Of a stretch of 64,000 nucleotides of DNA, positions 1,025 to 63,084 are shown piece by piece; positions within the stretch are counted from its first letter, which is position 1; each line of letters starts with the position of its first letter. The notes below the pieces were generated by a model. It was not told the DNA's origin. It searched no databases and was given only the letters and a program-made list of their open reading frames with translations. The stretch spans positions 354,175 to 418,174 of the forward strand of contig CAYWXV010000001.1 in assembly GCA_964462535.1 (NCBI GenBank). The letters are read 5' to 3'. The translations under genes and the position numbers were made by a program. This DNA is from an uncultured Alphaproteobacteria bacterium. Its GTDB lineage: Bacteria; Bacteroidota; Ignavibacteria; OLB7.

Positions 1025-3810
1025 TCGGTGACCAGGTCCAAACTCCCCTACCGTCCAGAATCATGGCAGAACAACACGCACCCGAGATCACCTTTATTCG
1101 GAATAGACCGGCATCCAGAAAAGGGGCCGGCGACGAACCGTCTCAATCGGCCCGAAAGCGAAAGCCCTCGAAAGCATCCAAGGGTGAGTCGGCCAGCGCC
1201 GGCGGTCACAATACGAGGGAGCCGCGTGTTACGCCTGATGAGCGCCTGCGGCACGTACTCGCCATTGCCCTTATCGTCTCCGGCTTTCTCGTCCTTCTGT
1301 CAATCGTAAGCTATACTCCTCTCGATCAGGCCAACGCGGACCTCCGAATCTCGGACGTCAGCGGCTTGATGACGAATGATCCGGCTGTAATCGCCCGTGC
1401 GGACACCACCAATAACTGGCTCGGACTCGTTGGTGCTCTCGTTGCAAATTTCCTGATCAATGGCACGATTGGCTACTGGGTCATTATCATCCCCCTCCTG
1501 TTGGGACTCTGGGGGGTCACAACCTACCGGGCCAAGGAAGTTGAGCGGTCGACTCGGCTAACGCTATTCACGATTGGGATCACGGCAAACGTTGCCGCAA
1601 TTCTGGGGACGATGCAGCTCATCACGTGGCTCCCCGCGCCGTCGCACGAGTGGAGTGGTGCCATCGGCGCCTTCATTGCATACGTGCTGTCCGGGCTGAT
1701 TGGGACCGCCGGCTCGATGCTCGTGCTCCTTTCCGCGCTTGGAATAACACTGCTTTACGCCGTGGACCTCGACCTGAAGGACATTGTGGCGTTTGTGCGG
1801 AAGCACGGATCGGAACTGGCGAGAGGGGCCGCAAGCGTACGCGCCCGGTTCGACCGTCCCGGGGACGAGGGTGGTAGGGTCGCTCCCGACGTCGCCGTTG
1901 AGCCTGCCGAGGCTGGTCTTTCGGTCGACGAACCAGCCCGCATGATTCGACGACGGAAAGGTGTCGACACGCCGTTCACTGCAGTTGAGCCTCAGATCCG
2001 AACCGTCGACGACCGGGAGTTGAGAACGTCACGGTCACCGCTCCCCGATCTTCAACAAGCGGCACCGCCGGCCGTCCAAAGGCCCCGCGAGACCACATCC
2101 GAAGTGCGGACAGGTGACACCTCCGCGCCGAACGTCCCGAATGAGGCCGTTCGGTTGCGTGCACCTGAGGCCGTCGAGCAGGATACGTCCAACGTGGAAG
2201 TCGTGCGTGGCGAGGATCCGACACCCACCCCACCACCTGCAGCGCGCCTGACACTGAACGTGCAGGAGGGCGAGACGGAAGCAGACGTGGAATCGACGAA
2301 GGGTGACGCCCTCCTCTCGAGGATCAAGGACGAAGAGATCAAGTACGTGCCGCCGCCGGTACTACTCCTAACGCCGCAGAACGAGCACGAGGAAGTGCGG
2401 GATGAGGAACTGAAGGAGAATGGAAGAATTCTTCAGGAAAAGTTGGGAACGTTCAACATCCAGATCGAGAATCTCACGGTGACGCCCGGACCCGTTGTGA
2501 CTCTGTACGAGTTTGTGCCGGCAGCCGGGATCAAGATTTCACAGATCGAATCGCTCACGGACGACATTGCGCTCGCGATGAAGGCCCGAGGTATCCGTAT
2601 CATCGCCCCGATCCCCGGCAAAGGGACCGTTGGTGTTGAGATCCCAAACCATCGTCCGACGATGGTCCGCATTCGGTCGGTGTTGAACACTACAAAGTTC
2701 CGAGAGGCAGACCTCCGGCTCCCGCTCGCGCTGGGAAAGACAACTATAGGCGAGGTCTATTGCGACGACCTGACGAAGATGCCTCACCTGCTGATTGCAG
2801 GAGCAACCGGGTCAGGGAAGTCTGTCGGGATCAACGCGATACTGGCATCCCTCATTTACAAGATGCATCCGCGTGACCTGAAGCTGGTTATTGTCGACCC
2901 GAAGAAGATTGAGCTTACGCAGTACCGGACGCTGGCGTCGCACTTCCTGGCGCAGTGCCCCGACATCGACGAGGACATCATCACAACGCCCCAGAACGCC
3001 GTGATGGCTCTCAAGTCGCTCGAGATGGAGATGGATCGACGATACGATATCCTTGCCAAGGGGCGGCAGCGGAACATCGCAGACTACAATCAGAAGATCG
3101 CCGAAGGAGCGTACGCGTCTGTAGCGGACTTCGATCACAGGAAGCTCCCCTACATCGTGCTGATTCTCGATGAGCTGGCTGACCTTATGATCACCGCACG
3201 TGGGGAGGTCGAAGAGCCAATTGCGCGTCTGGCGCAACTTGCACGCGCCGTTGGTATTCACATGGTCGTGGCAACGCAGCGGCCGTCTGTCGACGTGCTA
3301 ACGGGTACCATCAAGGCCAACTTCCCTGCCCGCATCGCCTACCAGGTCGCCTCCAAGATTGACTCGCGAACGATTCTCGATATGTCCGGGGCGGAGTACC
3401 TCCTTGGGAATGGTGATATGCTCTATCTGCCTGGCGGATCTCCCAAACCCATCCGACTGCAGAATGCGTTCATATCCACGGAAGAGGTTGAAGCGATCTG
3501 TGACCACGTTGGCGATCAGCAAGGTTTCACAACGCCCTACATGCTCCCGTCGATGCTGGACCGGCGTCGCGCTGGCAGCTCAGGGGGCGACGATTCCAGG
3601 GACGAACTGTTCGAGGATGCGGCGAAGCTGGTGGTGCGTCATCAGCAGGGATCCGTATCGCTCGTGCAGCGCCGGCTGAAGGTCGGCTACTCGCGAGCTG
3701 CGCGGATTATCGATGAGCTTGAGATGGCTGGAATCGTGGGACCGTTCGACGGATCGAAGGCCAGGCAGGTGTTGGTCGAGGACGAGGACGATCTGGATCT
3801 CTACCTCTGA
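1021..3810 (+). CDS. ftsK: DNA translocase FtsK/SpoIIIE
   Basis: 929 aa. N-terminal TM helices, a Pro/Glu-rich linker, Walker A GATGSGKSVGINAILASL, Walker B LILDELADLM, and a C-terminal winged-helix gamma domain (RRLKVGYSRAARIIDELEMAGIVGP). A GTG start at 1021 overlaps the comB stop; an alternative ATG lies at 1063. Confidence 0.9.
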   Translation: MIGDQVQTPLPSRIMAEQHAPEITFIRNRPASRKGAGDEPSQSARKRKPSKASKGESASAGGHNTREPRVTPDERLRHVLAIALIVSGFLVLLSIVSYTPLDQANADLRISDVSGLMTNDPAVIARADTTNNWLGLVGALVANFLINGTIGYWVIIIPLLLGLWGVTTYRAKEVERSTRLTLFTIGITANVAAILGTMQLITWLPAPSHEWSGAIGAFIAYVLSGLIGTAGSMLVLLSALGITLLYAVDLDLKDIVAFVRKHGSELARGAASVRARFDRPGDEGGRVAPDVAVEPAEAGLSVDEPARMIRRRKGVDTPFTAVEPQIRTVDDRELRTSRSPLPDLQQAAPPAVQRPRETTSEVRTGDTSAPNVPNEAVRLRAPEAVEQDTSNVEVVRGEDPTPTPPPAARLTLNVQEGETEADVESTKGDALLSRIKDEEIKYVPPPVLLLTPQNEHEEVRDEELKENGRILQEKLGTFNIQIENLTVTPGPVVTLYEFVPAAGIKISQIESLTDDIALAMKARGIRIIAPIPGKGTVGVEIPNHRPTMVRIRSVLNTTKFREADLRLPLALGKTTIGEVYCDDLTKMPHLLIAGATGSGKSVGINAILASLIYKMHPRDLKLVIVDPKKIELTQYRTLASHFLAQCPDIDEDIITTPQNAVMALKSLEMEMDRRYDILAKGRQRNIADYNQKIAEGAYASVADFDHRKLPYIVLILDELADLMITARGEVEEPIARLAQLARAVGIHMVVATQRPSVDVLTGTIKANFPARIAYQVASKIDSRTILDMSGAEYLLGNGDMLYLPGGSPKPIRLQNAFISTEEVEAICDHVGDQQGFTTPYMLPSMLDRRRAGSSGGDDSRDELFEDAAKLVVRHQQGSVSLVQRRLKVGYSRAARIIDELEMAGIVGPFDGSKARQVLVEDEDDLDLYL

Positions 3811-4520
3811 TCATCGTCGAGCAGAACCAGACGATCACCGGTCGTCTGTTCTGGCTTCCGCCCGCGAACCTCGCGAATGACGACGTCCGGCCGGTCGACA
3901 CGCGCACGATGGGGCATCGGTGCGCCTCGATGGTCACCGTCGTAGTAGTGAAGCGTTCGACCTCTAGTTGTCTGAATCATCAGGAGGGGCCCACGCCCCT
4001 CATCTTGCACGAACACCACCTCCCCCTTTCCCATTTCGCCTCGCTCCCCTGGGCTGAGCTGCGATAACACCAGTTCGAACGATGCAGTCGCAACAAGATG
4101 GTGACAGCATCGCGAAATGAATTCAACACCCGATGGCGCGCCCTGGTCCGACGGCATCATGATGGATATTGGAGTCTTTCGTCCGAGTACGCGTGAGTAG
4201 TTGACGAACGCACAGACACCCCTGGCGTACGAAACCGAGGCCGAGGTCAGGATGATCCCCCGGATTCCGAGGAGTCGTTTCAGTTTTGACTCCTGATACA
4301 ACGCCGACAACATATGTGAGGTCGGATTGATCAGAACGACAGCACCTTCGTACGCAACGAGTGTCCCGATGGTCGTCACGTCGTCCATCAGGAAGACTTC
4401 GGCGAGATGGCGCTTATCGAACCAGACTCTTTTCGTGAACATGTACCGGGCGATGAGAGAGATTGGATGTTCGCGGCTATCGACTATATCCGGTGCGGAC
4501 ACGATTCGGGGTGCTCGCAT
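3801..4520 (-). CDS. hypothetical protein (alpha/beta-like; possibly a degenerate MBL-fold relative)
   Basis: 239 aa ORF with non-repetitive, protein-like composition. Co-directional with and downstream of fur. No confident family match by eye. Confidence 0.4.
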   Translation of the reverse strand: MRAPRIVSAPDIVDSREHPISLIARYMFTKRVWFDKRHLAEVFLMDDVTTIGTLVAYEGAVVLINPTSHMLSALYQESKLKRLLGIRGIILTSASVSYARGVCAFVNYSRVLGRKTPISIMMPSDQGAPSGVEFISRCCHHLVATASFELVLSQLSPGERGEMGKGEVVFVQDEGRGPLLMIQTTRGRTLHYYDGDHRGAPMPHRARVDRPDVVIREVRGRKPEQTTGDRLVLLDDDQR

Positions 4521-5065
4521 TCGGCAAAGATCTGGAACGAATGATCCACAACTTTCAAGCCGGCCTTCTCGGCGACCTGTTTACGAATGCTGAGAAGCTG
4601 CGGATGAACGAACTCAGAGATGTGCCCGCAGATGACACAGATCAGGTGATCGTGATGCGGCTCATCAAAGCCGACTTCGTAGTAGCTCCGACCACTCCGG
4701 AAGTTGTGCTTGATGATCAAACCAGCCTTCTCCAACAGCTCCAACGTCGAGTAGACAGTGGCACGGCTGATCGACTGCTTGTCGACCACCATGGACGCAT
4801 AGAGCTCATCCGCATTGAAGTGACCAACACGATTCAGGACCGCGTCGAGAATCTTGTACCGCTCTGGCGTTGAGCGATAGTGCCCGTTTGCCAGAAATCG
4901 TTGAAAGGTCTTGAGCGCCTGCTGCTTCAACTCGTCACTAAGCACGCGATCCGATTCCAACAGAGCTTTCGACTCCAACTCGTCGACCGGGACTGAATTT
5001 TCCCTGTGGTCGGTCTGAGTTGTCTCGCGACGGACTGTGGTTCGCTGGGTACCTGCCTGTTTCAT
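4484..5065 (-). CDS. fur: Fur family transcriptional regulator
   Basis: C-terminal HHDHLICVICG...CEHPESCPH metal-site motifs and a winged-helix region (ERYKILDAVL). Carries a ~45 aa N-terminal extension, so the true start may lie further in. Confidence 0.85.
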   Translation of the reverse strand: MKQAGTQRTTVRRETTQTDHRENSVPVDELESKALLESDRVLSDELKQQALKTFQRFLANGHYRSTPERYKILDAVLNRVGHFNADELYASMVVDKQSISRATVYSTLELLEKAGLIIKHNFRSGRSYYEVGFDEPHHDHLICVICGHISEFVHPQLLSIRKQVAEKAGLKVVDHSFQIFAECEHPESCPHRI

Positions 5066-5086: not shown

Positions 5087-7462
5087 TCACGAACGGATGT
5101 GTGCGTGGGCCGAACCTGGTGGCATGGATGTGAGGCCCTCGGCAACCTGCTCGGGGGCGGCATCCCCAATGACGAGCGCAACTTCGCGACGCCTGCGAAC
5201 AATGGCAAAAGCAAATCCACCGACCATGATAATCACGCCGGCCCAGACGAAGGAGATGAACGGTTTGACCGACACGTCGACTACGACAACGGGTTTTGAG
5301 GGGGGTGATGGCCGCGAAGACGACTTGAATGCAAGCACAACCTGCGAGTTCGCGAGGTTCTCTTGATCGCTGACGATCCCGGCCATGCCGACCGAAACAT
5401 CGGTCCCCGCAATCTTTTTCGGAATATAGGCGCCTGTCGACATCACATATTCCGTGGTTACGAAGAACGAGGTATCGGGCCGCGTAATCTCCAGAATCGC
5501 ACTCTGTTTCCCCTCGGTCTGGGCTCGACTCATGTCGAAGCGCTCGAAGCGAACCGAGATTGTTGAGTCAAACGGAACAGCAGCCCGTTCGCCCTTGCGC
5601 AGCTGTGCAGTTGGGTCACCACCATCGTCTTCAAGAGCCTTCGGGGAAACGTAAATGTCTCTGGATGGGTAGTAGAGAATACCCGGCTCCAGGAAGGGCG
5701 TCTCGCGCTTGTTGAAGTCACTTAGAAAAGTGACGGGACCGACGGTGTACGTGTCGTCGCCCCGCTTCAGCACAATGTTGTGCCGGTACTTCTCACGATC
5801 GGTCTTCTCGAGTTCGGTCCTTTCGGGACCGGTATACGTTGCCGTATAGTCGAACACTTTGGTGGGGACACCCTGGACCAATCGAACGTGCTGTGTTTCG
5901 GTATACCGTGCTGTGAATATGATGCCGAGCATCATGAGCGAGACGCCGGCGTGCGAAATGTATGCACCGATGAATCGAGGGTTCCCTCGGACAACGCGAG
6001 CGCCAACTTGCGTGTTGACAACGATGGCCAGAATGGACCCGAAGCCCAACGCAAGGTAGATGGGATCCGCAACTCCAAGGGCGAACAATCCGATCGTCCC
6101 GAGCAACGCGATACCCCCAGCGATCCACATTCCCTTCGCGAATTCCTCCCTCTCCGTGTTCCTCCACTTCAAACGCATGCTGATGCCATTCAGAAGGACG
6201 ATGGCGAGCGCAATGGGTAGATGAAGGTTGTTATAGAAATCGGTGGGTACAGCAGCCTTTGGCTTACCTATGAGCGGCATGATTAGCGGCCACGAGGTTC
6301 CAATCAGCACGACCGTTGAGGACGCAAGCAGCACCGCCGATCCAATCGCCAACGCGTTCTCGCGTGACAATAGTGGGAAGCGAATTGGGGCCTGTTGAAG
6401 CTCCTTCCAACGCATCAGCAGCAGGCCGAAGCCCAGGCCCAGAAACGTGAGGAGAATCACCAGCAACACGAAGTAGACGAAACCACCCGGTGATACGAAG
6501 CTATGCACAGAGGTATCGCCTAGGACACCGGAGCGCGTCAGGAAGGTCGAGTACAGGATCAAGCCCCATGCGGCAACGGCCAGCGCAAAATTTGTCCGCA
6601 CCAGACCACCCACGCGCATCTGGTCGCCAGGCTTCCTCGGAATGGCCCCGGTCCGCTTCTGTACAAGCATTGTGTGAACAAGCGCGACGCATGCAAGCCA
6701 CGGTATCAGGCTCGAGTTTTCGACGGGATCCCACGCCCAGAATCCTCCCCATCCAAGCGTCTCGTAGGCCCACCATCCACCCAGCATGATTCCAAAACCG
6801 AGCGCCATCGACGCAAAGAGCGCCCATGGCAACGATATCGTGATCCATCGTTGGTAATCGCGTTTCAGTAGCCCTGCAACAGCGAAGACAAACGGGACCG
6901 TCATAGATGCGAAGCCGAGGAAGAGTATTGGGGGGTGAATCGTAATCCAGAGGTTTTCCAGCTGTGGATTCAGGCCTCTTGGGGTCGGAATGAAGTCAGC
7001 GGGGATCTTCTCGTCGGGGAACGACTGAAAGATCGTGTGAAACGGAGACTTCACCGTCAGGATGACGAGCAGGAGCGAAATCACAAGCATGAGGGGGATC
7101 ATGGTGTGTGTCTCGTACCCAACTCGCTGCGAGTAACTGTAGACGAAGATCCCGATGATGCAGGTCATCAGCGTCCAGAGCATGAAACTTCCCTCCTGCC
7201 CTGCATAGAAAGAGGCTATCTGGAGCGGGCGCGAAAGGTTGCCAGAGGAATGCTGGTAGATGTACGTGAACTGATACTGGTGCGACAGAATCAAATACAT
7301 CAGGTACGCCGAAGCGCCCAGGAACGTGACGACCGAGAGGTGGAAGCAGGTTCGCGCTACCTGAAGGTCGCGGTGATCCTGTCGTCGCAGCGTCAGTACA
7401 TACGCCACCAACGAAGCAAGCGCGGATGCCAGTGACGCGGAAATCGCGAATGATCCAAACAT
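5087..7462 (-). CDS. ccmF: cytochrome c-type biogenesis protein CcmF (heme lyase)
   Basis: 791 aa polytopic membrane protein. WWD domain WWAYETLGWGGFWAWDPVENSSLIPWL. The N-terminus follows the CcmF pattern (...QHSSGNLSRPLQIASFYAGQEGSFMLWTL). Confidence 0.85.
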   Translation of the reverse strand: MFGSFAISASLASALASLVAYVLTLRRQDHRDLQVARTCFHLSVVTFLGASAYLMYLILSHQYQFTYIYQHSSGNLSRPLQIASFYAGQEGSFMLWTLMTCIIGIFVYSYSQRVGYETHTMIPLMLVISLLLVILTVKSPFHTIFQSFPDEKIPADFIPTPRGLNPQLENLWITIHPPILFLGFASMTVPFVFAVAGLLKRDYQRWITISLPWALFASMALGFGIMLGGWWAYETLGWGGFWAWDPVENSSLIPWLACVALVHTMLVQKRTGAIPRKPGDQMRVGGLVRTNFALAVAAWGLILYSTFLTRSGVLGDTSVHSFVSPGGFVYFVLLVILLTFLGLGFGLLLMRWKELQQAPIRFPLLSRENALAIGSAVLLASSTVVLIGTSWPLIMPLIGKPKAAVPTDFYNNLHLPIALAIVLLNGISMRLKWRNTEREEFAKGMWIAGGIALLGTIGLFALGVADPIYLALGFGSILAIVVNTQVGARVVRGNPRFIGAYISHAGVSLMMLGIIFTARYTETQHVRLVQGVPTKVFDYTATYTGPERTELEKTDREKYRHNIVLKRGDDTYTVGPVTFLSDFNKRETPFLEPGILYYPSRDIYVSPKALEDDGGDPTAQLRKGERAAVPFDSTISVRFERFDMSRAQTEGKQSAILEITRPDTSFFVTTEYVMSTGAYIPKKIAGTDVSVGMAGIVSDQENLANSQVVLAFKSSSRPSPPSKPVVVVDVSVKPFISFVWAGVIIMVGGFAFAIVRRRREVALVIGDAAPEQVAEGLTSMPPGSAHAHIRS

Positions 7463-7482: not shown

Positions 7483-7845
7483 CTAGTGAATGGTCATGCC
7501 TGTGGCGTGAAAGTAGTCTCCGTGCGAATGCCCCGATACCGAGACGGACACCTTCCCCTTGTACGCATTCTTGATGTCGGCCACCGACACCGGATCCTGT
7601 CCAGCATACTGGACCCTCGATGCCGTCCCCCCTGCATCCTTCATTGTAAACACGAGATCGCCATCCGCGTCCTCGACCTGATCAGAGGCAATCGTGCCGA
7701 CGACGATCACCTTCTTCTTCGAGTCGTTTACGGAAGCGGCCTGGCTGAATGTGAGCTCCGGAATGTCGACCGTGGCCAATCCATACCACGTCGTCAGGCC
7801 CGCAATGAGCACGAACGCCACGATGAACACGCTTCTTCTTGTCAT
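7483..7845 (-). CDS. CcmE-like heme chaperone paralog (His-type, truncated immediately after the His)
   Basis: OB-fold core (VIVVGTIASDQVEDADGDLVFTMKDAGGTASRVQYAGQDP) aligns with CcmE. The C-terminus reads GHSHGDYFHATGMTIH-stop, so the protein ends at the position of the heme-binding His and has no downstream Tyr. Start taken at Met21 (7845) of the ORF to avoid overlap with the upstream paralog. Confidence 0.55.
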   Translation of the reverse strand: MTRRSVFIVAFVLIAGLTTWYGLATVDIPELTFSQAASVNDSKKKVIVVGTIASDQVEDADGDLVFTMKDAGGTASRVQYAGQDPVSVADIKNAYKGKVSVSVSGHSHGDYFHATGMTIH

Positions 7846-7861
7846 TACATTCCCGGTAGTG

Positions 7862-8257
7862 TCAGCTTCCACTCTGCTTCTCAAATCCGGACGCATCCGA
7901 CTCATACTTCGACGGGCACTTCGTCAGAATGCTGGAGCAATGGAATGTGTTGTTCTCGACATATCCCGTCGCAACCATTGAGGTCGCCAATTCAAAGTTG
8001 TTTGGCTTGGCACCATCGTACTGCACCTGCATTGTACCACCCTTGTCGTCCCGCATGGTGAACTGGAAGAGGTTGTTCTGTGAATCGTACTGAGTCCCCT
8101 TGTTCTTGACCCAGGTCCCTGCAATCTGGACTTTGCGACCAGTCGATGCTGCGGATACGAAATCGGAGTATTCGATCTTCTTGTTCTCTAGCGTCAACAC
8201 CGTCGTGACCACAACGAGCATTGCCGCCAGCATTCCTATTACATACTTCATTCGCAT
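7862..8257 (-). CDS. ccmE: cytochrome c maturation heme chaperone CcmE, CXXXY variant
   Basis: 131 aa. N-terminal TM anchor and OB-fold core. C-terminal motif LTKCPSKYE (C-P-S-K-Y) sits where E. coli has LAKHDENY, i.e. the Cys-type CcmE described for archaea and Desulfovibrio. Confidence 0.85.
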   Translation of the reverse strand: MRMKYVIGMLAAMLVVVTTVLTLENKKIEYSDFVSAASTGRKVQIAGTWVKNKGTQYDSQNNLFQFTMRDDKGGTMQVQYDGAKPNNFELATSMVATGYVENNTFHCSSILTKCPSKYESDASGFEKQSGS

Positions 8258-10488: not shown

Positions 10489-12543
10489 CTACCGCATTAC
10501 TTCAACCGCGCTCGACTCGACATATCGCCCACCCACCGAAAGCACGATGAAGTATCTTCCTGCACCTGCGCTACGCCCCAATCCATCGTTCCCATCCCAT
10601 CGCGTCGAATAGGTCCCACGACGGTGCTCGCCACAAACGAGCCTGCGAACAATCTGGCCGCGAATGTCGACCACGGTGAGGTCAACCAAACCTGACTCGC
10701 CTGCAACATAGCGTACTTCGGTCCCCTCCGTGAGCGGGTTGGGTACACACGATTCGATCCGCGTCGGCCCCAAGGAGATATCCTGCTCGAGCACGCCAAT
10801 CGTGTACCGGCCGAACAAACGTCCATACCCGGCCGCCAGAGAGTCGGCGAGGTCAAGATCGGAGCGCTCGTTCCACAGCCCGTAGTACCGGTCCTGCGTT
10901 CCGAACGCGGGCGCCTCCGGCGTGGAAGCGGCGGAGTTGCGTGAGCCCCGTCCATTCCGATGGCAACTTTCCGAGCACGTATTCAGCATTCCTCCTCTGA
11001 AATCACCGGCGTAGTCCAACGTCAGCGATGGAGGGAGCACTTTGAATCCGTGACTACTGAACTCGTACAGCCGTTTACCTGGAAGATCGACGAACCCGAT
11101 TGAGGCCGTCTTGGTGAAATGGCAATTGACGCACTGGGAAACCGCCTGATCGTGTTGTGAATGTAGGTTGACGATTCGGCCACCCCTCGCGAGGCTTGGC
11201 CCCGTGTCCCTCATGTCCGGGTGGCACGCACCGGCAACACAACCCGCGTTGGAATCAAGGCTATACCAGTTCCGGTTGAGCTGATACGGCAGCTCACCCC
11301 CGAACGAAGAATCGTATTTGTTGAAGTGAATCGTGTGACAACTCCAACATCCATTCGAGAAGACCTGGCGCGAATGGGGGACCGAAGTCCTGTAGTCCTG
11401 TCCCGTCTGATGATGCGCATACGAGGTGGTGTTATCGGCCCACGTCTGCCTACCGGTCACGGAATCCCGTCTGAACTGCCCGAGGGACACGCCTGGGACA
11501 TAATGTTGTGGTGTCGCATCATCGTACGCGAATGGATGCTTCCCCATCGTCGAAACGTATCGTTCGTGGCACTGGCCGCACAGATCAAGCTTGAGTTCCG
11601 TCCCCATGTACGTTCCGGGGAATTGAGCACTCTTGCCGGGTGACACAATGTTGTCTGACGTAGGTTGGGCAACGTGTTGGGATCCAGGTCCGTGGCAACT
11701 CTCACACCCGATCACGATGTTGGCATCGCGGGCCATCGAATCGGTCCCATACGATCCAGGATACTGGACGGTGAACACGTCGGCCGTATCAGCACGATCC
11801 ACCGTCAGCGTCGCGCCGTTCACATGACACGGGGCGCACGCCTCGTGCCAACTCTGCTTCCTGAATGTCGGAGACGTGAACTCGTAAAACCTTCCTTCGC
11901 CGGTGAGCGTGTCGATATCGAACCACCTCTTGAAGTCGAGGAAATAGAATGCCCCACCGTGCTCCGACCGCTGCTTGTAACCCGGGAGTGCGAATTGAAA
12001 TGGTGGGATATAGTAGCGGCCATCAATATCGACCAGGAATCTCTCGATCCAGGCACGCCCTCCGTATGTATACGCGACCCTCATGGGTGGCGTCGAGTCG
12101 CCCCCCCCGCTGAAGGACAATTGTATGGCGTAGTCCCGACCAATCCCCTGCTTGAAAAGTCGGATTCTGAGTGTGTCGCGTCCCGGGTAGCGAATCTGCA
12201 CGACCGGGGTAGAAATCATAGTGTCGCGCTCAAACATGCGGTCCAGTATCACCGTCTCAGGTGTTGGACGGAGATGGATCTGCTGGTGCACGGTCTGCTT
12301 GAAGAGGACAAGACCCTTGTAGTCGCTCGTCCCGGAGTAGCCTGCGAAGTGGCAGGCGGCAGTGACGCAGGTCTGTTGTCCAACGTACTCGCTAGGGCCG
12401 GGTCCGTCGAACGACTGCAGGGTGGTTACCCGGGTCAGCAATGCTGCGCCCGTCACCAACCCAACAAGTAGGATGAGCCTGTTCAATGTCACGACGTGTT
12501 TGTTCGAGCTACAGGCATGCGCCTTAACGAAAGAGGGACGCAT
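10489..12543 (-). CDS. octaheme c-type cytochrome with T9SS C-terminal sorting domain (paralog A)
   Basis: Signal peptide, five CXXCH motifs (CAPCH, CESCH, CGQCH, CWSCH, CVNCH), two CX4CH (CVTAACH, CVAGACH) and one CX3CH (CSESCH). C-terminal type-A T9SS CTD (CVPNPLTEGTEVRY...GTYSTRWDGNDGLGRSAGAGRYF...VEVMR). Confidence 0.8.
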   Translation of the reverse strand: MRPSFVKAHACSSNKHVVTLNRLILLVGLVTGAALLTRVTTLQSFDGPGPSEYVGQQTCVTAACHFAGYSGTSDYKGLVLFKQTVHQQIHLRPTPETVILDRMFERDTMISTPVVQIRYPGRDTLRIRLFKQGIGRDYAIQLSFSGGGDSTPPMRVAYTYGGRAWIERFLVDIDGRYYIPPFQFALPGYKQRSEHGGAFYFLDFKRWFDIDTLTGEGRFYEFTSPTFRKQSWHEACAPCHVNGATLTVDRADTADVFTVQYPGSYGTDSMARDANIVIGCESCHGPGSQHVAQPTSDNIVSPGKSAQFPGTYMGTELKLDLCGQCHERYVSTMGKHPFAYDDATPQHYVPGVSLGQFRRDSVTGRQTWADNTTSYAHHQTGQDYRTSVPHSRQVFSNGCWSCHTIHFNKYDSSFGGELPYQLNRNWYSLDSNAGCVAGACHPDMRDTGPSLARGGRIVNLHSQHDQAVSQCVNCHFTKTASIGFVDLPGKRLYEFSSHGFKVLPPSLTLDYAGDFRGGMLNTCSESCHRNGRGSRNSAASTPEAPAFGTQDRYYGLWNERSDLDLADSLAAGYGRLFGRYTIGVLEQDISLGPTRIESCVPNPLTEGTEVRYVAGESGLVDLTVVDIRGQIVRRLVCGEHRRGTYSTRWDGNDGLGRSAGAGRYFIVLSVGGRYVESSAVEVMR

Positions 12544-12609: not shown

Positions 12610-14607
12610 CTATCTCACGAGCACTACTTGCTCCCCGGTCATCACACCGTTGGAGCTGAGCATTCGAACGAGGTAGGTGCCATTCGGGAGCATATGCCCT
12701 CCGTCGTCAGACCCGTACCACACGCACGTATAGGTGCCCCGGTCATGATCGGAGGCGATCAGCGTTCGAACACGCGCGCCGTTCGTGTTGAATATCTGTA
12801 TGGAGACGGCGCCCGGAACGGTAACGTCGTAACGAATCTCGGTCCGGTTCACCATAGGGTTCGGCGCGATCGTCTTGAGACCAGACCCACCACCCGCATG
12901 CGCGGAAAGACGCACACCTCCGACACTCGGCCAGAAGTCCTTGTAGTACTTCAGCAGCGAGTCAGCCAACCTCTTGTCCGTGATCTCTCCCCACAGCCCG
13001 ATTAGCTGGTCGTTGATACCGAACGAAGGAGCGACCGGTGTCGAGTCTGCAAAATTCCTCGAACCCCTGCCATTGCGGTGACAGCTTGCCGCACATGTGT
13101 TCATCATTCCAAGACCACCCGTGTTGAAGTAGTCTATCGTGATCTGAGGCGATAAGACGCGGAAGTTGTGGTTGCTGAACTCCTGAAGTGGCTTCTGCGG
13201 CAGATCGACGAATCCAATGGATGCTGTCTTGGTGAAGTGGCAGTTGACGCATTGCGATATCTCCTGCGCGTGTTGCGTGTGGAGATTGACCATCATGCCG
13301 TTGCGAAGAGGGCTCGGCCCGACCTCGCGCTTATCAGGGTGACACCCGGACGCAACGCATCCCTGGTTCTCGGCGAGACTATACCAGTTCCGATCAAGCT
13401 GGTAGGGTAGTTCCCCGCCAAACGAGGAGTCATACTTGTTGTAGTGAACAGTATGACAACTCCAGCAGCCGTCCGAGAAGACGTGCGCCAGGTAGGGTTT
13501 CGAGAAACGGAAGTCCTGACCCGTCTGGTGGTGCGCGTACGACGTGACCCCATCCGGCCACCTGTTCATTCCGGTCAGTGAGTCCTTCTGGAAGAGTCGG
13601 AGCGATGAGCCTGGGATAAATGGCTGATCGTTGACTTCATCGTATGCAAAGTTATGTGTCCCACCCGTCGACTTGAACCGCTCGTGACATTGCCCGCAAA
13701 GGTCAAGCTTGAGATCGATGCCGGCCGGCGTCCGGGGAAACTGGCTGCTCTTACCCGGGGAGACAATGTTCTCGGCGGTTGGATTTGCAACGTGCTCCGA
13801 TCCGGGCCCGTGACAGCTCTCGCACCCGATCAGGATGTTCTCGTGCAAGGCCAGAGAATCGGCTCCATCCGATCCAACGAAGTTGAGCGTATAGATCTTC
13901 GCTGTATCACCATCCACGTACGAACGCGTCATACCGTTTATGTGACACGAGGCGCATTGCTCATCCCATGCCTGCTTCTTGAAGGTCGTGGAGCCGAACT
14001 CGTAGAAGACCCCCTCCTGGTTTGACTGGTCGATGCCATACCACTTGCTGAAGTCCAACCAGTAGAACCAACCACCTGTGTCTGCCCGCTCCTTGTACCG
14101 CGGAAGCGAATACTGGAACGGCGGGACGTAATGCCGGCCATCGACTTCGACCAGGTATCGTTCAATCCATCCGCGACCGCCGTAGGTAAATGCCACCTTC
14201 ATCGCGGGCGTGGAGTCACCGCCACCAGAAAAGAAGAGCTGTACGTAATAGTCCTTCTTGTCAGGACTCTTGAAGAGGCGGGCGTTCAACGTGTCGCGTC
14301 CAGGATATCTGATCTGAACGATCGGCGTCGAGATCACCGTGTCCTTGTCGAACATCCGATCGATCACCACCGTCTCTGGTGTTGGGCGCAGGTGAATCTG
14401 CTGATGGAGGGTCTTCTTGAACTCGGCCAGCCCCTTGTAGTCGCTGGCACCGCTATACCCCGATTCATGACAATTGGCCGTGACGCACGTCTGCTGACCC
14501 ACGTATTCACGAGGCGCAGGTCCAGGTTTCGAGTCCACGCTGAACGCGAACGCAGCAACGCCTGCGACGGCGATCGCAAGCGACGCAAGAAGTTTGGGAC
14601 GTTTCAT
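12610..14607 (-). CDS. octaheme c-type cytochrome with T9SS C-terminal sorting domain (paralog B)
   Basis: About 70% identical by eye to paralog A over long stretches, with the same eight heme motifs (CVTANCH, CASCH, CESCH, CGQCH, CWSCH, CVASGCH, CVNCH, CAASCH). Signal peptide MKRPKLLASLAIAVAGVAA; the start is trimmed to that Met (14607). T9SS CTD ends ...NGTYLVRMLSSNGVMTGEQVVLVR. Confidence 0.8.
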   Translation of the reverse strand: MKRPKLLASLAIAVAGVAAFAFSVDSKPGPAPREYVGQQTCVTANCHESGYSGASDYKGLAEFKKTLHQQIHLRPTPETVVIDRMFDKDTVISTPIVQIRYPGRDTLNARLFKSPDKKDYYVQLFFSGGGDSTPAMKVAFTYGGRGWIERYLVEVDGRHYVPPFQYSLPRYKERADTGGWFYWLDFSKWYGIDQSNQEGVFYEFGSTTFKKQAWDEQCASCHINGMTRSYVDGDTAKIYTLNFVGSDGADSLALHENILIGCESCHGPGSEHVANPTAENIVSPGKSSQFPRTPAGIDLKLDLCGQCHERFKSTGGTHNFAYDEVNDQPFIPGSSLRLFQKDSLTGMNRWPDGVTSYAHHQTGQDFRFSKPYLAHVFSDGCWSCHTVHYNKYDSSFGGELPYQLDRNWYSLAENQGCVASGCHPDKREVGPSPLRNGMMVNLHTQHAQEISQCVNCHFTKTASIGFVDLPQKPLQEFSNHNFRVLSPQITIDYFNTGGLGMMNTCAASCHRNGRGSRNFADSTPVAPSFGINDQLIGLWGEITDKRLADSLLKYYKDFWPSVGGVRLSAHAGGGSGLKTIAPNPMVNRTEIRYDVTVPGAVSIQIFNTNGARVRTLIASDHDRGTYTCVWYGSDDGGHMLPNGTYLVRMLSSNGVMTGEQVVLVR

Positions 14608-14804
14608 AAGGCAACGGCAGGGAATTGATGGAGAATGACCGAGCGGGGACCGTCGGCCATTCAAGGCTGAGCGTGGGGGCATGGGGGTGCGTCACGACAA
14701 ACCGGCACTTCTCGCATGCAGTGTTCCAACCGGCCCCAGCGTCTCCACTATGAAAGACACACCAGGCAGTCAGAGGTCGCGCGCCTGATCTCAGATATGT
14801 TGAT

Positions 14805-15683
14805 CTATCGGACTACAGTCAGGCGCCGTGAGAGCGTCCGACCACCTTGAGACATCACGTAAATGTACTCCCCCGCGGGGAGTGATGAAACTACGACGTC
14901 CACTGAGAACGAACCGGGCTCGACGAAACGATCAAACGCTGTCAGCAGGCGATTGCCGGCAAGGCCGAACAATTTAATTGTCACTTGACCCGACTCTTTC
15001 ACAGCGAAGGGAATCATAGTGTTTCGGCTACATGGATTTGGCAGATTCTGCGCCAGTGACATCCCAGTGGGAGGCGCCGAGTCCGTATCCGCACTGGCCG
15101 GCTGCGTATCGATCGTGACGGTGTTGTCACCATCGAATGAGGCGCGGAACTTCCGTAATCCATTCCTGACTGTGCCCGTTCTGGGGGCATCGCGATCGCC
15201 CGCCGGTGGTGTGATCCATGTCCCATCGGGCTCAAAGTTGCTCCCCTGATGACAACAGTGGAAACGGAACTCGAGCGGATCGAAGCTCACCTGGTAATCA
15301 TTCCCATGCGGACAGTACGTTGAAACCGCCGTGAACGCATTCTCCCCCACATCCGCGACACGTGTCACCGCTATCGGGTACCATCCTCTCTTGCACGAAA
15401 ACGCCTCGGTCTCGGCTCTCAACGACGCGGATCCGAGCTCCACGTGATCCGGGTTCAGCAGGAGTTCCTCATCTCTGATCAGTTTGATTGACCCGCCCAC
15501 CTGCGCGAGATCAGGGTAATCGCTCAACCGGATCTGAATCAGCGTGGACAGCTTTCCGGGCACGTCGCCTGGTAGTGAAAGCCGTCCCAGCACGACACCG
15601 CGCGCTGCAACGGAGACGACCACAAGACCGGCAGCCCGCTTGAGGAAGTCCCGTCGGGAATCATCGGCAGTATTCTCCTTCAT
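14805..15683 (-). CDS. Rieske-like [2Fe-2S] domain protein with Tat signal and T9SS C-terminal domain
   Basis: Twin-arginine signal SRRDFLKRAAGLVVV. Rieske-like box I CPHGN; after 15 residues comes HCCHQGSNFEPDG, where a canonical protein would have CPCHGS. C-terminal T9SS CTD (LAQNLPNPCSRNTMIPFAV...GEYIYVMSQGGRTLSRRLTVVR). Start trimmed to the Met preceding the RR motif. Confidence 0.55.
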   Translation of the reverse strand: MKENTADDSRRDFLKRAAGLVVVSVAARGVVLGRLSLPGDVPGKLSTLIQIRLSDYPDLAQVGGSIKLIRDEELLLNPDHVELGSASLRAETEAFSCKRGWYPIAVTRVADVGENAFTAVSTYCPHGNDYQVSFDPLEFRFHCCHQGSNFEPDGTWITPPAGDRDAPRTGTVRNGLRKFRASFDGDNTVTIDTQPASADTDSAPPTGMSLAQNLPNPCSRNTMIPFAVKESGQVTIKLFGLAGNRLLTAFDRFVEPGSFSVDVVVSSLPAGEYIYVMSQGGRTLSRRLTVVR

Positions 15684-15820
15684 CGCCACGTACTTTATCA
15701 TCCGAGGACCAGCCCGAGAGAGGCGCAATTGCGCTGAGCGTGCCCCTTTCTTGGAAGACCCTGATCATACCAATTGGTTACCGAACCCGGTCACCTGGAA
15801 ACGTCTCGAAACGATTGCGT

Positions 15821-33263: not shown

Positions 33264-33971
33264 ATGCTCCAGGTAGAATCTCTCTCGGTCAGCTATGGCG
33301 CCATTTCGGCGCTCAAGGGAATCAGCTTCACGGTTCCTGATAGGTCGATCGTGACTCTGATTGGTGCGAACGGGGCGGGCAAGACGACAACACTGCGCAC
33401 GATCTCGGGACTCGTTCCTGCTCTCTCCGGTCGTATTGTGTTTAACGGCGAGGACATTCTGAATCGTCCCCCCCACCTGGTCGTCGCGCGTGGTATCAGC
33501 CAGTCCCCTGAAGGGAGAATGATCTTCCCCGGTTTGAGCGTTCAGGAGAATCTGATGCTTGGGGCGTACCTGAGGAAGGATCGGGTGGAAATAGATCGCG
33601 ACCTCGAGTATTGCTACACCATCTTCCCCAGGCTTAAGGAACGGATGAAGCAGGCCGGCGGGACCTTGTCGGGAGGCGAGCAACAGATGCTGGCGATAGC
33701 ACGTGCTCTGATGTCGCGGCCGAAGGTGCTGCTGCTGGACGAACCAAGTCTCGGTATTGCGCCAATACTCGTGAAGCTGATCTTCGAGAAGGTGGTTGAG
33801 ATCAACCGTGACCTCGGGACGACGATTCTGCTGGTCGAACAGAACGCGAACATGGCGTTACAAACCGCCTCGTACGCCTACGTCCTGGAAACGGGCGAGA
33901 TAACTATCGAAGGACCGGCGAGCGATCTGGCCTCAAACGAAGAAGTCCAAAAAGCCTACCTTGGCATGTAG
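33264..33971 (+). CDS. livF: branched-chain amino acid ABC transporter ATP-binding protein LivF
   Basis: Walker A GANGAGKTT, signature LSGGEQQMLAIARAL, Walker B LLLLDEPS. Confidence 0.9.
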   Translation: MLQVESLSVSYGAISALKGISFTVPDRSIVTLIGANGAGKTTTLRTISGLVPALSGRIVFNGEDILNRPPHLVVARGISQSPEGRMIFPGLSVQENLMLGAYLRKDRVEIDRDLEYCYTIFPRLKERMKQAGGTLSGGEQQMLAIARALMSRPKVLLLDEPSLGIAPILVKLIFEKVVEINRDLGTTILLVEQNANMALQTASYAYVLETGEITIEGPASDLASNEEVQKAYLGM

Positions 33972-60202: not shown

Positions 60203-60284
60203 GGAGGGCTCGCATAATGGTATTGCAGCGGTCTTGAAAACCGCCGGGCGCAAGCCTGTGGGGGTTCGAGTCCCTCGCCCTCCG
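60203..60284 (+). tRNA. tRNA-Ser (anticodon TGA)
   Basis: Hand fold: acceptor ggagggc/gccctcc, D-arm, anticodon stem gcggt/accgc with loop cuUGAaa (U33, A37), a 15-nt variable arm (type II), T-arm ggggg-ttcgagt-ccctc, discriminator G. CCA is not encoded. Lies inside the N-terminus of ORF 60162..60956. Confidence 0.85.
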
Positions 60285-62579: not shown

Positions 62580-63012
62580 GTCGGAGTCGGTCGGGCAGTC
62601 GCCCGGTTGGGCATCGAGCGCAATCGGGAGGAACGTCCGAACTCCAGGGGCAGCGTGCCGGCTAACGGCCGGGCGTCCAATCCGGGTGTGCCACGCGCAC
62701 GCACGGAGAGACGACGGAAAGTGCAACAGAAAACATACCGCCTCCTTCGGCAACGCTTGGGGGTAAGGGTGAAATGGCGAGGTAAGAGCTCACCGCGTCA
62801 ACGGTAACGTTGGCGGCATTGCAAACCCCACGCGGAGCAAGGCCAAATAGGGTGTCGTAATGAGGACCGCCCCCTTCTTCGTCCGGCCTTTGCGGCTGGC
62901 CGAACGGCACCGGGTAGGCTGCTCGAGGCCGCGAGCAATCGTGGTCCCAGATACATGACTGCCTCCGGGTACGCGCACGACGCGTCTCGCAGACAGAATT
63001 CGGCGTACAGAC
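62580..63012 (+). ncRNA. rnpB: RNase P RNA, bacterial type A
   Basis: Conserved blocks are present: gggaggaacgtccgaactcc (P4 5' strand), acagaaaacataccgcc, gggtaagggtgaaatggcgaggtaagagctcaccg, caaaccccacgcggagcaaggccaaatagggt, and agacagaattcggcgtacagaccggcttcgac (P4 3' strand plus P1). P4 shows compensatory changes (CCGAA/TTCGG against E. coli CCGGG/CCCGG). The P1 strands gtcggagtcggtc and gaccggcttcgac pair with each other. All overlapping ORFs on both strands are short and low-complexity. Confidence 0.85.
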
Positions 63013-63084
63013 CGGCTTCGACACTTCTTTGTTCTGGTTCGCGGCGGTAGTTGGAACACTCCCGCGATCACCAACCACCTACCC

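Follow-up and report, generated by a model that had tools for sequence, protein, structure and literature searches.

This analysis concerns a small gene, referred to here as X, in a cytochrome c maturation (ccm) operon on a 64,000-nucleotide stretch of contig CAYWXV010000001.1 (assembly GCA_964462535.1); the whole stretch is called the window. Between positions 7483 and 8257, two co-directional minus-strand open reading frames (ORFs) lie side by side inside a minus-strand operon of the order ccmB-ccmC-ccmD-ccmE-X-ccmF (Table 1). The upstream one is predicted to encode a Cys-type heme chaperone, CcmE*, and the downstream one X, a shorter relative without the C-terminal tail. The ORFs of CcmE* and X are 16 nucleotides (nt) apart, and 20 nt separate the stop codon of X from the start of ccmF. 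An earlier note on the same DNA had taken the two products for two types of CcmE in one operon, the second being a His-type chaperone that stops exactly at its heme-binding histidine. This raises several questions. Is X an intact gene? Is it a CcmE at all? Which of its residues are conserved, and what might they do?

In the System I* variant of cytochrome c maturation, CcmE is of the Cys type and CcmH and CcmG are usually absent (PMC3601427; PMC9084895). Neither ccmG nor ccmH nor ccmI was found in the ccm operon of the window among the ORFs or by Pfam, and the lack of ccmG and ccmH, as seen at the level of the operon within the window, is consistent with System I* (PMC3601427). No ccmA was found in the 64-kb window, where ccmB is preceded by cytochrome genes. 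The sole small ATP-binding cassette (ABC) ATPase of the window (33264-33971) was considered as CcmA and rejected as LivF/UrtE-like.

Table 1. Positions of the ccm genes, of elements within them and of other features (L and P numbers, here and in the text, are our designations for loci and proteins; aa, amino acids; OB, oligonucleotide/oligosaccharide-binding; T9SS, type IX secretion system)
Feature	Position	Strand	Basis or remark
ccmB, 224 aa	9583..10257	-	Pfam CcmB, 4.9e-10
ccmC, 375 aa	8449..9576	-	His60, His184 and WWD motif kept
CcmE-like OB domain in periplasmic loop 1 of CcmC, residues ~69-140, ~95 aa	9157..9372	-	hhalign
ccmD, alternative CcmD family, 54 aa	8279..8443	-	weak below-threshold matches to Pfam CcmD_alt and TIGR04391; position conserved
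CcmE*, predicted Cys-type System I* heme chaperone, 131 aa	7862..8257	-	Pfam CcmE, 3.4e-16
CPSKY motif of CcmE* (Cys114...Tyr118)	7904..7918	-	column of E. coli His130...Tyr134
Gene X, predicted tail-less CcmE paralogue of an unannotated family, 120 aa	7483..7845	-	
Predicted transmembrane anchor at the N-terminus of X (residues 3-26), following Arg-Arg	7768..7839	-	AF2 helix; conserved MxRR and hydrophobic stretch
GHSHGDYFH of X, residues 105-113, His/Cys cluster on the beta4-turn-beta5 hairpin	7507..7533	-	
Terminal His120 codon (CAC) and TAG stop of X	7483..7488	-	conserved in the window, L014 and L015
ccmF, 791 aa	5087..7462	-	His173, His261, His303 and His491 kept
Fur-family regulator, 193 aa, N-terminal extension, downstream of ccmF	4484-5065	-	
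~210-aa protein, downstream of ccmF	3801-4520	-	no family match
Paralogous octaheme cytochromes, T9SS-type/FlgD_ig C-termini	10489-12543, 12610-14682	-	
307-aa protein after the octahemes	14805-15728	-	weak Rieske and Por_Secre_tail matches
tRNA gene	60203-60284	+	
Bacterial class A RNase P RNA	62583-63023	+	271 bits
115-aa orphan X-like genes at other loci	L006 7884-8231, L007 7902-8249, L008 7815-8162, L009 ~5836-6183		

The upstream gene

The product of the upstream gene scores 59.9 bits against the Pfam CcmE family (PF03100), above the curated cutoff of 24.6, and aligns with the solved CcmE structures 2KCT, 1J6Q and 1SR3. It consists of an N-terminal membrane anchor, an OB domain and a tail, ...ILTKCPSKYESDASGFEKQSGS. 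In the multiple alignment its ILTKCPSKY falls on VLAKHDENY of Escherichia coli CcmE and on LMTKCP of 2KCT, with Cys114 in the place of His130 and Tyr118 in that of Tyr134. CPSKY is the majority CcmE motif of System I* (PMC3601427). Judged by its sequence, the protein is clearly an ordinary Cys-type CcmE of System I*. The CXXXY motif assigned to it in the earlier note thus stands, but the chain does not end at ...KYE as was stated there, since 12 more residues, SDASGFEKQSGS, follow. A second cysteine, Cys107 (7937-7939), lies in an 'FHC' motif seven residues ahead of the attachment cysteine (TFHCSSILTKC); it is limited to the clade of the window (also L014 and L015), and other orthologues have alanine there.

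Reality and boundaries of gene X

Translation of X starts at the ATG at 7845, which gives a product of 120 aa with a conserved MxRR N-terminus. A 140-aa reading from the ATG at 7905 was rejected because the orthologues and gene calls all begin at MxRR and because ccmE would then be overlapped by 44 nt. At its other end the protein runs ...GHSHGDYFHATGMTIH directly into the stop codon, so that, as had been noticed earlier, no Tyr-containing flexible tail is present and the chain stops at His120. The His codon and the following TAG are common to the DNA of the window, L014 and L015, with a synonymous change from CAC to CAT in L014, and the ATG of ccmF lies 16-20 nt beyond. Comparison of X in the window with that in L015 gave a ratio of nonsynonymous to synonymous substitution rates (dN/dS) of 0.14, synonymous sites being saturated for other pairs. 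A word-indexed search of 5.8 billion proteins returned four X proteins, each of 120 aa and ending in SGHSHG[DE]YFHATGMT[IL]H; these four closest orthologues show no change in the terminal His and hardly any in the last 19 residues. The same 120-aa product has been called on 16 contigs examined here, from many independent sequencing runs, and orthologues with 58-77% identity stop at the same place. The conserved start and stop, the independent contigs and the dN/dS therefore exclude a frameshift or a pseudogene, and the stop after His, which had been described with the proviso of a possible sequencing error, is genuine.

Homology and fold of X

BLASTP aligns X with the neighbouring CcmE* at 24% identity over 96 aa (E 5e-8), and a profile of 18 members of the X family aligns with a CcmE alignment over 108 columns (hhalign, 97.6%, E 4.7e-12); the earlier view that the second gene is a relative of CcmE is thereby upheld. 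The Pfam CcmE model matches 4 of these 18 members, at best with E 1.3e-6. Pairwise comparison with the His-type CcmE of E. coli revealed no similarity (E = 9), and the family profile matched the OB core of that protein alone (76%). A phmmer search of PDB sequences with X gave chance matches only. X is thus nearer to its Cys-type neighbour than it is to CcmE of the His type. This points to a tandem duplication long ago, by which X plausibly arose as a derivative of the Cys-type lineage.

The AlphaFold2 (AF2) model of X has a predicted local distance difference test (pLDDT) score of 89.2 and comprises a transmembrane helix at residues 3-26 followed by an OB barrel, with strands at 46-52, 58-70 and 75-80, a helix at 88-96 and further strands at 100-107 and 111-119. 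When this model was used as a Foldseek query, CcmE (1LM0) was found among generic OB folds and had the best target-normalised TM-score of the matches, 0.63 (E 1.3e-3, root-mean-square deviation 3.1 A). As predicted from the alignments and the model, X is a far-diverged paralogue of CcmE and a type-II membrane-anchored periplasmic OB-fold protein.

The terminal histidine and the conserved His/Cys cluster

The terminal His of X had been placed in the column of E. coli His130. In the profile alignment anchored on the F-H-[A/C] strand motif, YFHATGMTIH of X lies opposite TFHCSSILTK of CcmE*, so that His120 faces Lys113 of CcmE*, which corresponds to E. coli Lys129, one residue ahead of His130. An offset of a single residue at a chain end is within alignment tolerance and alone is not decisive; what decides is a residue census of the family (n = 35 sequences). 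At the position of the last His, only 4 of the 35 have His, whereas 8 have Pro, 8 Lys and 4 Asn, the others including Tyr. Nor does X have an H/CXXXY motif after the last strand: neither HXXXY nor any Tyr is found there. The reading of this terminal residue as the heme-binding His is therefore not supported.

The residues that the family does conserve lie slightly upstream, in the stretch GHSHGDYFH. Gly105 is invariant, His106 is present in 32 of the 35 sequences, position 108 holds His in 23 of them and Cys in another 8, and Phe112, His113 and Ala114 occur in 33, 31 and 32 sequences, respectively. The conserved element of X is accordingly G-H106-x-[H/C]108...F-H113-A, in the last beta-hairpin, and in the multiple alignment its cluster residues are not conserved in the CcmE* partners. 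In one member, P0014, all three histidines have been lost together (GRWM-GDHFVA), which fits one functional unit. Since the terminal His is found in 4 of 35 members and H106, H/C108 and H113 are near-invariant, the cluster, rather than the terminal His, is the conserved functional element. The His cluster had been recorded before as a feature near the supposed attachment site; its presence is confirmed and its residues H106, H/C108 and H113 prove to be family-conserved, but its rank as a mere accompaniment has to be given up.

In the OB fold, the beta4-beta5 hairpin (L45) and the loop between beta1 and beta2 (L12) flank the canonical ligand face. From this topology, the cluster of X is expected on the L12/L45 face, whereas the attachment site and C-terminus of CcmE are found at the other end of the last strand. 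His-rich inserts (HNHEGH, HEHEGH and HNHEEGDGHSH) are found in the L12 loop of P0025, P0032 and P0033, and at L016 565-957; by the same topology, they should neighbour the conserved cluster and would enlarge the same site.

Distribution and gene order of the X family

When 1.84 billion cluster representatives were searched exhaustively with an HMMER profile, 22 matched; three of these, the long proteins P0021, P0023 and P0026, are spurious and were rejected from the family as FctA/SdrD_B repeat proteins. Every member is named "hypothetical protein" in its source, and the labelled relatives come from metagenome-assembled genomes of Bacteroidota, Chlorobiota and Ignavibacteria. X is thus a small unannotated family of Bacteroidota/Ignavibacteria-like bacteria, with identities to the window protein down to about 27%. 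A literature search turned up no account of such a CcmE paralogue, of an OB insertion in CcmC or of ccm in Ignavibacteria or Bacteroidota.

The gene directly upstream of ccmF is X in 11 distinct loci, namely the window (with L001-L004), L005, L010, L011, L012, L014, L015, L016, L017, L018 and the P0030 contig, and in some of them the stop codon of X overlaps the start of ccmF. The order ccmD(alt)-ccmE(CPSKY)-X-ccmF recurs wherever enough DNA is available (the window and L001-L005, L010-L012, L014, L015, L017, L018 and the P0030 contig); at L016 the X-ccmF junction alone is visible. Several of the X-bearing ccm operons are without ccmG and ccmH, and those of L012, L017 and L018 have no adjacent cytochrome gene. 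The sole subgroup outside ccm is formed by the 115-aa orphan genes of Ignavibacteria/Chlorobiota (L006-L009), whose neighbours are an S9 peptidase and T9SS proteins (L007, L008) or SDR and GDH genes (L006).

CcmC and CcmF in X-bearing operons

CcmC of these operons has 340-376 aa compared with 245 aa in E. coli. The extra residues form an insertion after the first transmembrane helix, just ahead of the His60 heme-ligand loop, and by hhalign this insert matches CcmE at 89.9% and the X family at 93.7% probability. In the column of the attachment residue the CcmC insert shows neither Cys nor His, and it is conserved in CcmC of L005, L010, L011, L014, L015, L017 and L018.

Could X supply a ligand that its partners have lost? 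This possibility was rejected: His60 and His184 of CcmC and His173, His261, His303 and His491 of CcmF are invariant, and CcmC keeps its WWD motif. All these ligands being kept, X is not replacing a lost one. CcmF of the window carries an insertion of about 100 residues in its C-terminal periplasmic region relative to E. coli CcmF (alignment columns ~650-765), which is common to L005, L010 and L011 and absent from the shorter CcmF of L012.

Neighbouring genes

Each of the two octaheme cytochromes, for which weak MtrC/MtrF-like matches were found, has five CXXCH, one CX3CH and two CX4CH sites, in agreement with the earlier report of CX3CH and CX4CH sites in these neighbours. Together with the 307-aa protein they are probably surface-exposed electron-transfer proteins, and the T9SS-sorted octahemes probably serve extracellular electron transfer. 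On the other side of the operon, the pair formed by the Fur-family regulator and the ~210-aa protein also follows ccmF in L001, L010, L011 and L014, which suggests metal- or heme-responsive control of the locus.

Possible roles of X

As a conserved gene under selection within a ccm operon, X plausibly has some role in the handling or handoff of heme. The reading that we favour, with moderate confidence, is that this diverged, tail-less CcmE paralogue serves as an accessory heme-handling subunit of a System I* variant at the step from CcmE* to CcmF. X would act between these two proteins, its His/Cys cluster serving either for non-covalent ligation of heme iron or as a docking site for a partner. 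In the window clade, the terminal His might contribute an optional further ligand close to the classical site of CcmE, without being the residue that defines the protein. X would then probably be a helper peculiar to its lineage and not another chaperone of the classical kind.

Several observations weigh against this proposal. The X protein of the window has no CcmE match at E <= 1 in Pfam or NCBIfam, and Foldseek places generic OB folds (RPA32, PolD DP1 and LysRS) above CcmE for its model. The position ascribed to the cluster is a deduction from the general topology of the OB fold. The His-rich loop inserts and the alternation of His and Cys would be just as compatible with a transition metal as with heme, and the orphan 115-aa subgroup, outside any ccm operon, keeps GHSHGDYFHA. 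Finally, System I* of Desulfovibrio works heterologously without any X-like protein (PMC3601427), and hence X cannot be generally required.

The observations on metal-like features lead to the most serious, though still unlikely, alternative: X may be a CusF-like periplasmic OB protein for a transition metal (Zn, Cu, Ni or Fe), placed beside ccm for regulation or protection, for example to keep metals off apocytochrome thiols or heme. In favour of such a role are the three-residue His/Cys cluster with its alternation at position 108, the His-rich L12 inserts in P0025, P0032 and P0033, the Fur-family regulator that several loci have as the next gene downstream of ccmF, and the orphan subgroup outside ccm. 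However, the strict place directly upstream of ccmF in 11 loci, where stop and start often overlap or lie close together, points to a part within the Ccm machinery itself; in addition, X descends from CcmE, it has no CusF-type Met/Trp motif, and the top 50 Foldseek matches do not include CusF.

Less likely still is that X has become a ligand-free pseudo-chaperone, a docking or scaffold module that might, for example, fill the place on CcmF where CcmE binds or assume some of what the missing CcmH/CcmI would do to present apocytochrome, its His cluster serving for protein or peptide contacts. The OB domain in loop 1 of CcmC, which lacks an attachment residue, suggests a structural use of OB modules in this lineage; ccmH, ccmI and ccmG are missing from the operon, and the gene stands always directly upstream of ccmF. 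Yet near-invariant histidines and a His/Cys alternation belong more typically to ligand or metal chemistry than to a mere contact surface, and X has none of the CXXC or tetratricopeptide repeat (TPR) features of CcmH and CcmI.

A bolder scheme, which we hold to be improbable, makes X another carrier of heme, with the site of attachment or ligation shifted from the C-terminal tail to the beta4-beta5 hairpin. Heme might then pass along a relay of OB domains, from that of CcmC to CcmE*, from CcmE* to X and from X to CcmF, which would offset the missing CcmH and CcmG and help heme to leave the very stable thioether of CcmE*. Position 108 of X alternates between His and Cys, the same pair of residues that alternates at the attachment site of CcmE.

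The model of the earlier note, in which X, as a further true chaperone, carries heme bound covalently to its terminal His and works in parallel with the Cys-type CcmE, one serving CX3-4CH and the other CXXCH sites, is very improbable. It can draw on the terminal His and the last 19 residues as conserved in the four closest orthologues, on the distance of a single residue from the His130 column, and on the CX3CH and CX4CH sites of the adjacent octahemes. Against it stand the rarity of the terminal His in the family, where P, K, N, Y or still another residue is the last one elsewhere, the one-column offset together with the lack of HXXXY or a Tyr ligand, and the lack of similarity to His-type CcmE; nor can the label of a His-type paralogue be kept for a protein that matches neither the Pfam nor the NCBIfam CcmE models and is nearer to its Cys-type neighbour. 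As for the partitioning of substrates, it comes down to co-location in one type of orthologous locus, X being found also in the ccm operons without an adjacent cytochrome. Our literature search gave nothing usable on the handling of CX3-4CH motifs by Ccm. The Desulfovibrio System I* and the E. coli Ccm system mature CX4CH cytochromes c3 and are not known to use a dedicated chaperone for them, which counts against the model as well. What is left of the idea of two chaperone types in one operon is the presence of two CcmE relatives, the second of them conserved; a second type defined by a heme-binding terminal His falls away.

That X should be a duplicate in decay, or a CcmE that a frameshift from a sequencing or assembly error has deprived of its C-terminus, is hardly credible: it is indeed without the CcmE tail and below the Pfam threshold, but the product recurs on 16 contigs from independent runs, the stop is shared at 58-77% identity with a dN/dS of 0.14 and a synonymous change in the His codon, it leaves just 20 nt before ccmF, and the family is conserved down to 27% identity.

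Comparison with known systems

X and the OB insert of CcmC, which are now annotated as hypothetical or go unrecognised, are testable candidates for the release of heme from a Cys-thioether CcmE and for making good the missing CcmH and CcmG. Should X bind heme, it would represent a new class of periplasmic heme-handling protein; should it bind metal or be purely structural, the minimal parts list of this Ccm variant would still be redefined. Either effect is limited to one lineage, because the Desulfovibrio system works without X.

How does X compare with proteins already described? CusF is a small periplasmic OB-fold metallochaperone with a His-containing ligand cluster, a His/Met/Met(/Trp) site for Cu(I)/Ag(I), and its likeness to X is to be taken as a lead only. 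Unlike CusF, X is membrane-anchored and derived from CcmE, and its sequence shows no Met/Met/Trp site or Met-rich motif. With CcmH and CcmI (NrfF/NrfG) a functional analogy might be drawn at most, in that X is predicted to be a membrane-anchored periplasmic protein encoded beside ccmF in an operon without ccmH. The folds are unrelated: X is modelled as an OB barrel, whereas those proteins have a three-helix bundle with CXXC or a TPR fold, and X has no conserved pair of cysteines.

With the classical His-type CcmE (E. coli 1SR3; Shewanella 1J6Q and 1LM0; the CcmABCDE complex 8CE8), X appears to share the overall architecture and the fold class. It differs in showing no pairwise similarity, in lacking HXXXY and the flexible C-terminal domain, and in having its terminal His at the position of Lys129. 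The closest counterparts are the CcmE* proteins of System I*, as in Desulfovibrio (2KCT) and in archaea such as Methanosarcina acetivorans. The CcmE* of the window shares with these the anchor, the OB domain and CPSKY, and neither ccmH nor ccmG was found in its operon; X shares with them the anchor, the core motifs of the OB domain (F-x-M-x-D-x-x-G...V-x-Y-x-G) and the F-H-A strand. In contrast to CcmE*, X stops six residues past the FHA motif, has neither a Cys at the attachment column nor a Tyr ligand, and possesses a helix inserted between beta3 and beta4 as well as the conserved His/Cys cluster. Set beside all of these proteins, X is a new, unannotated family derived from CcmE that marks a lineage-specific variant of System I*.

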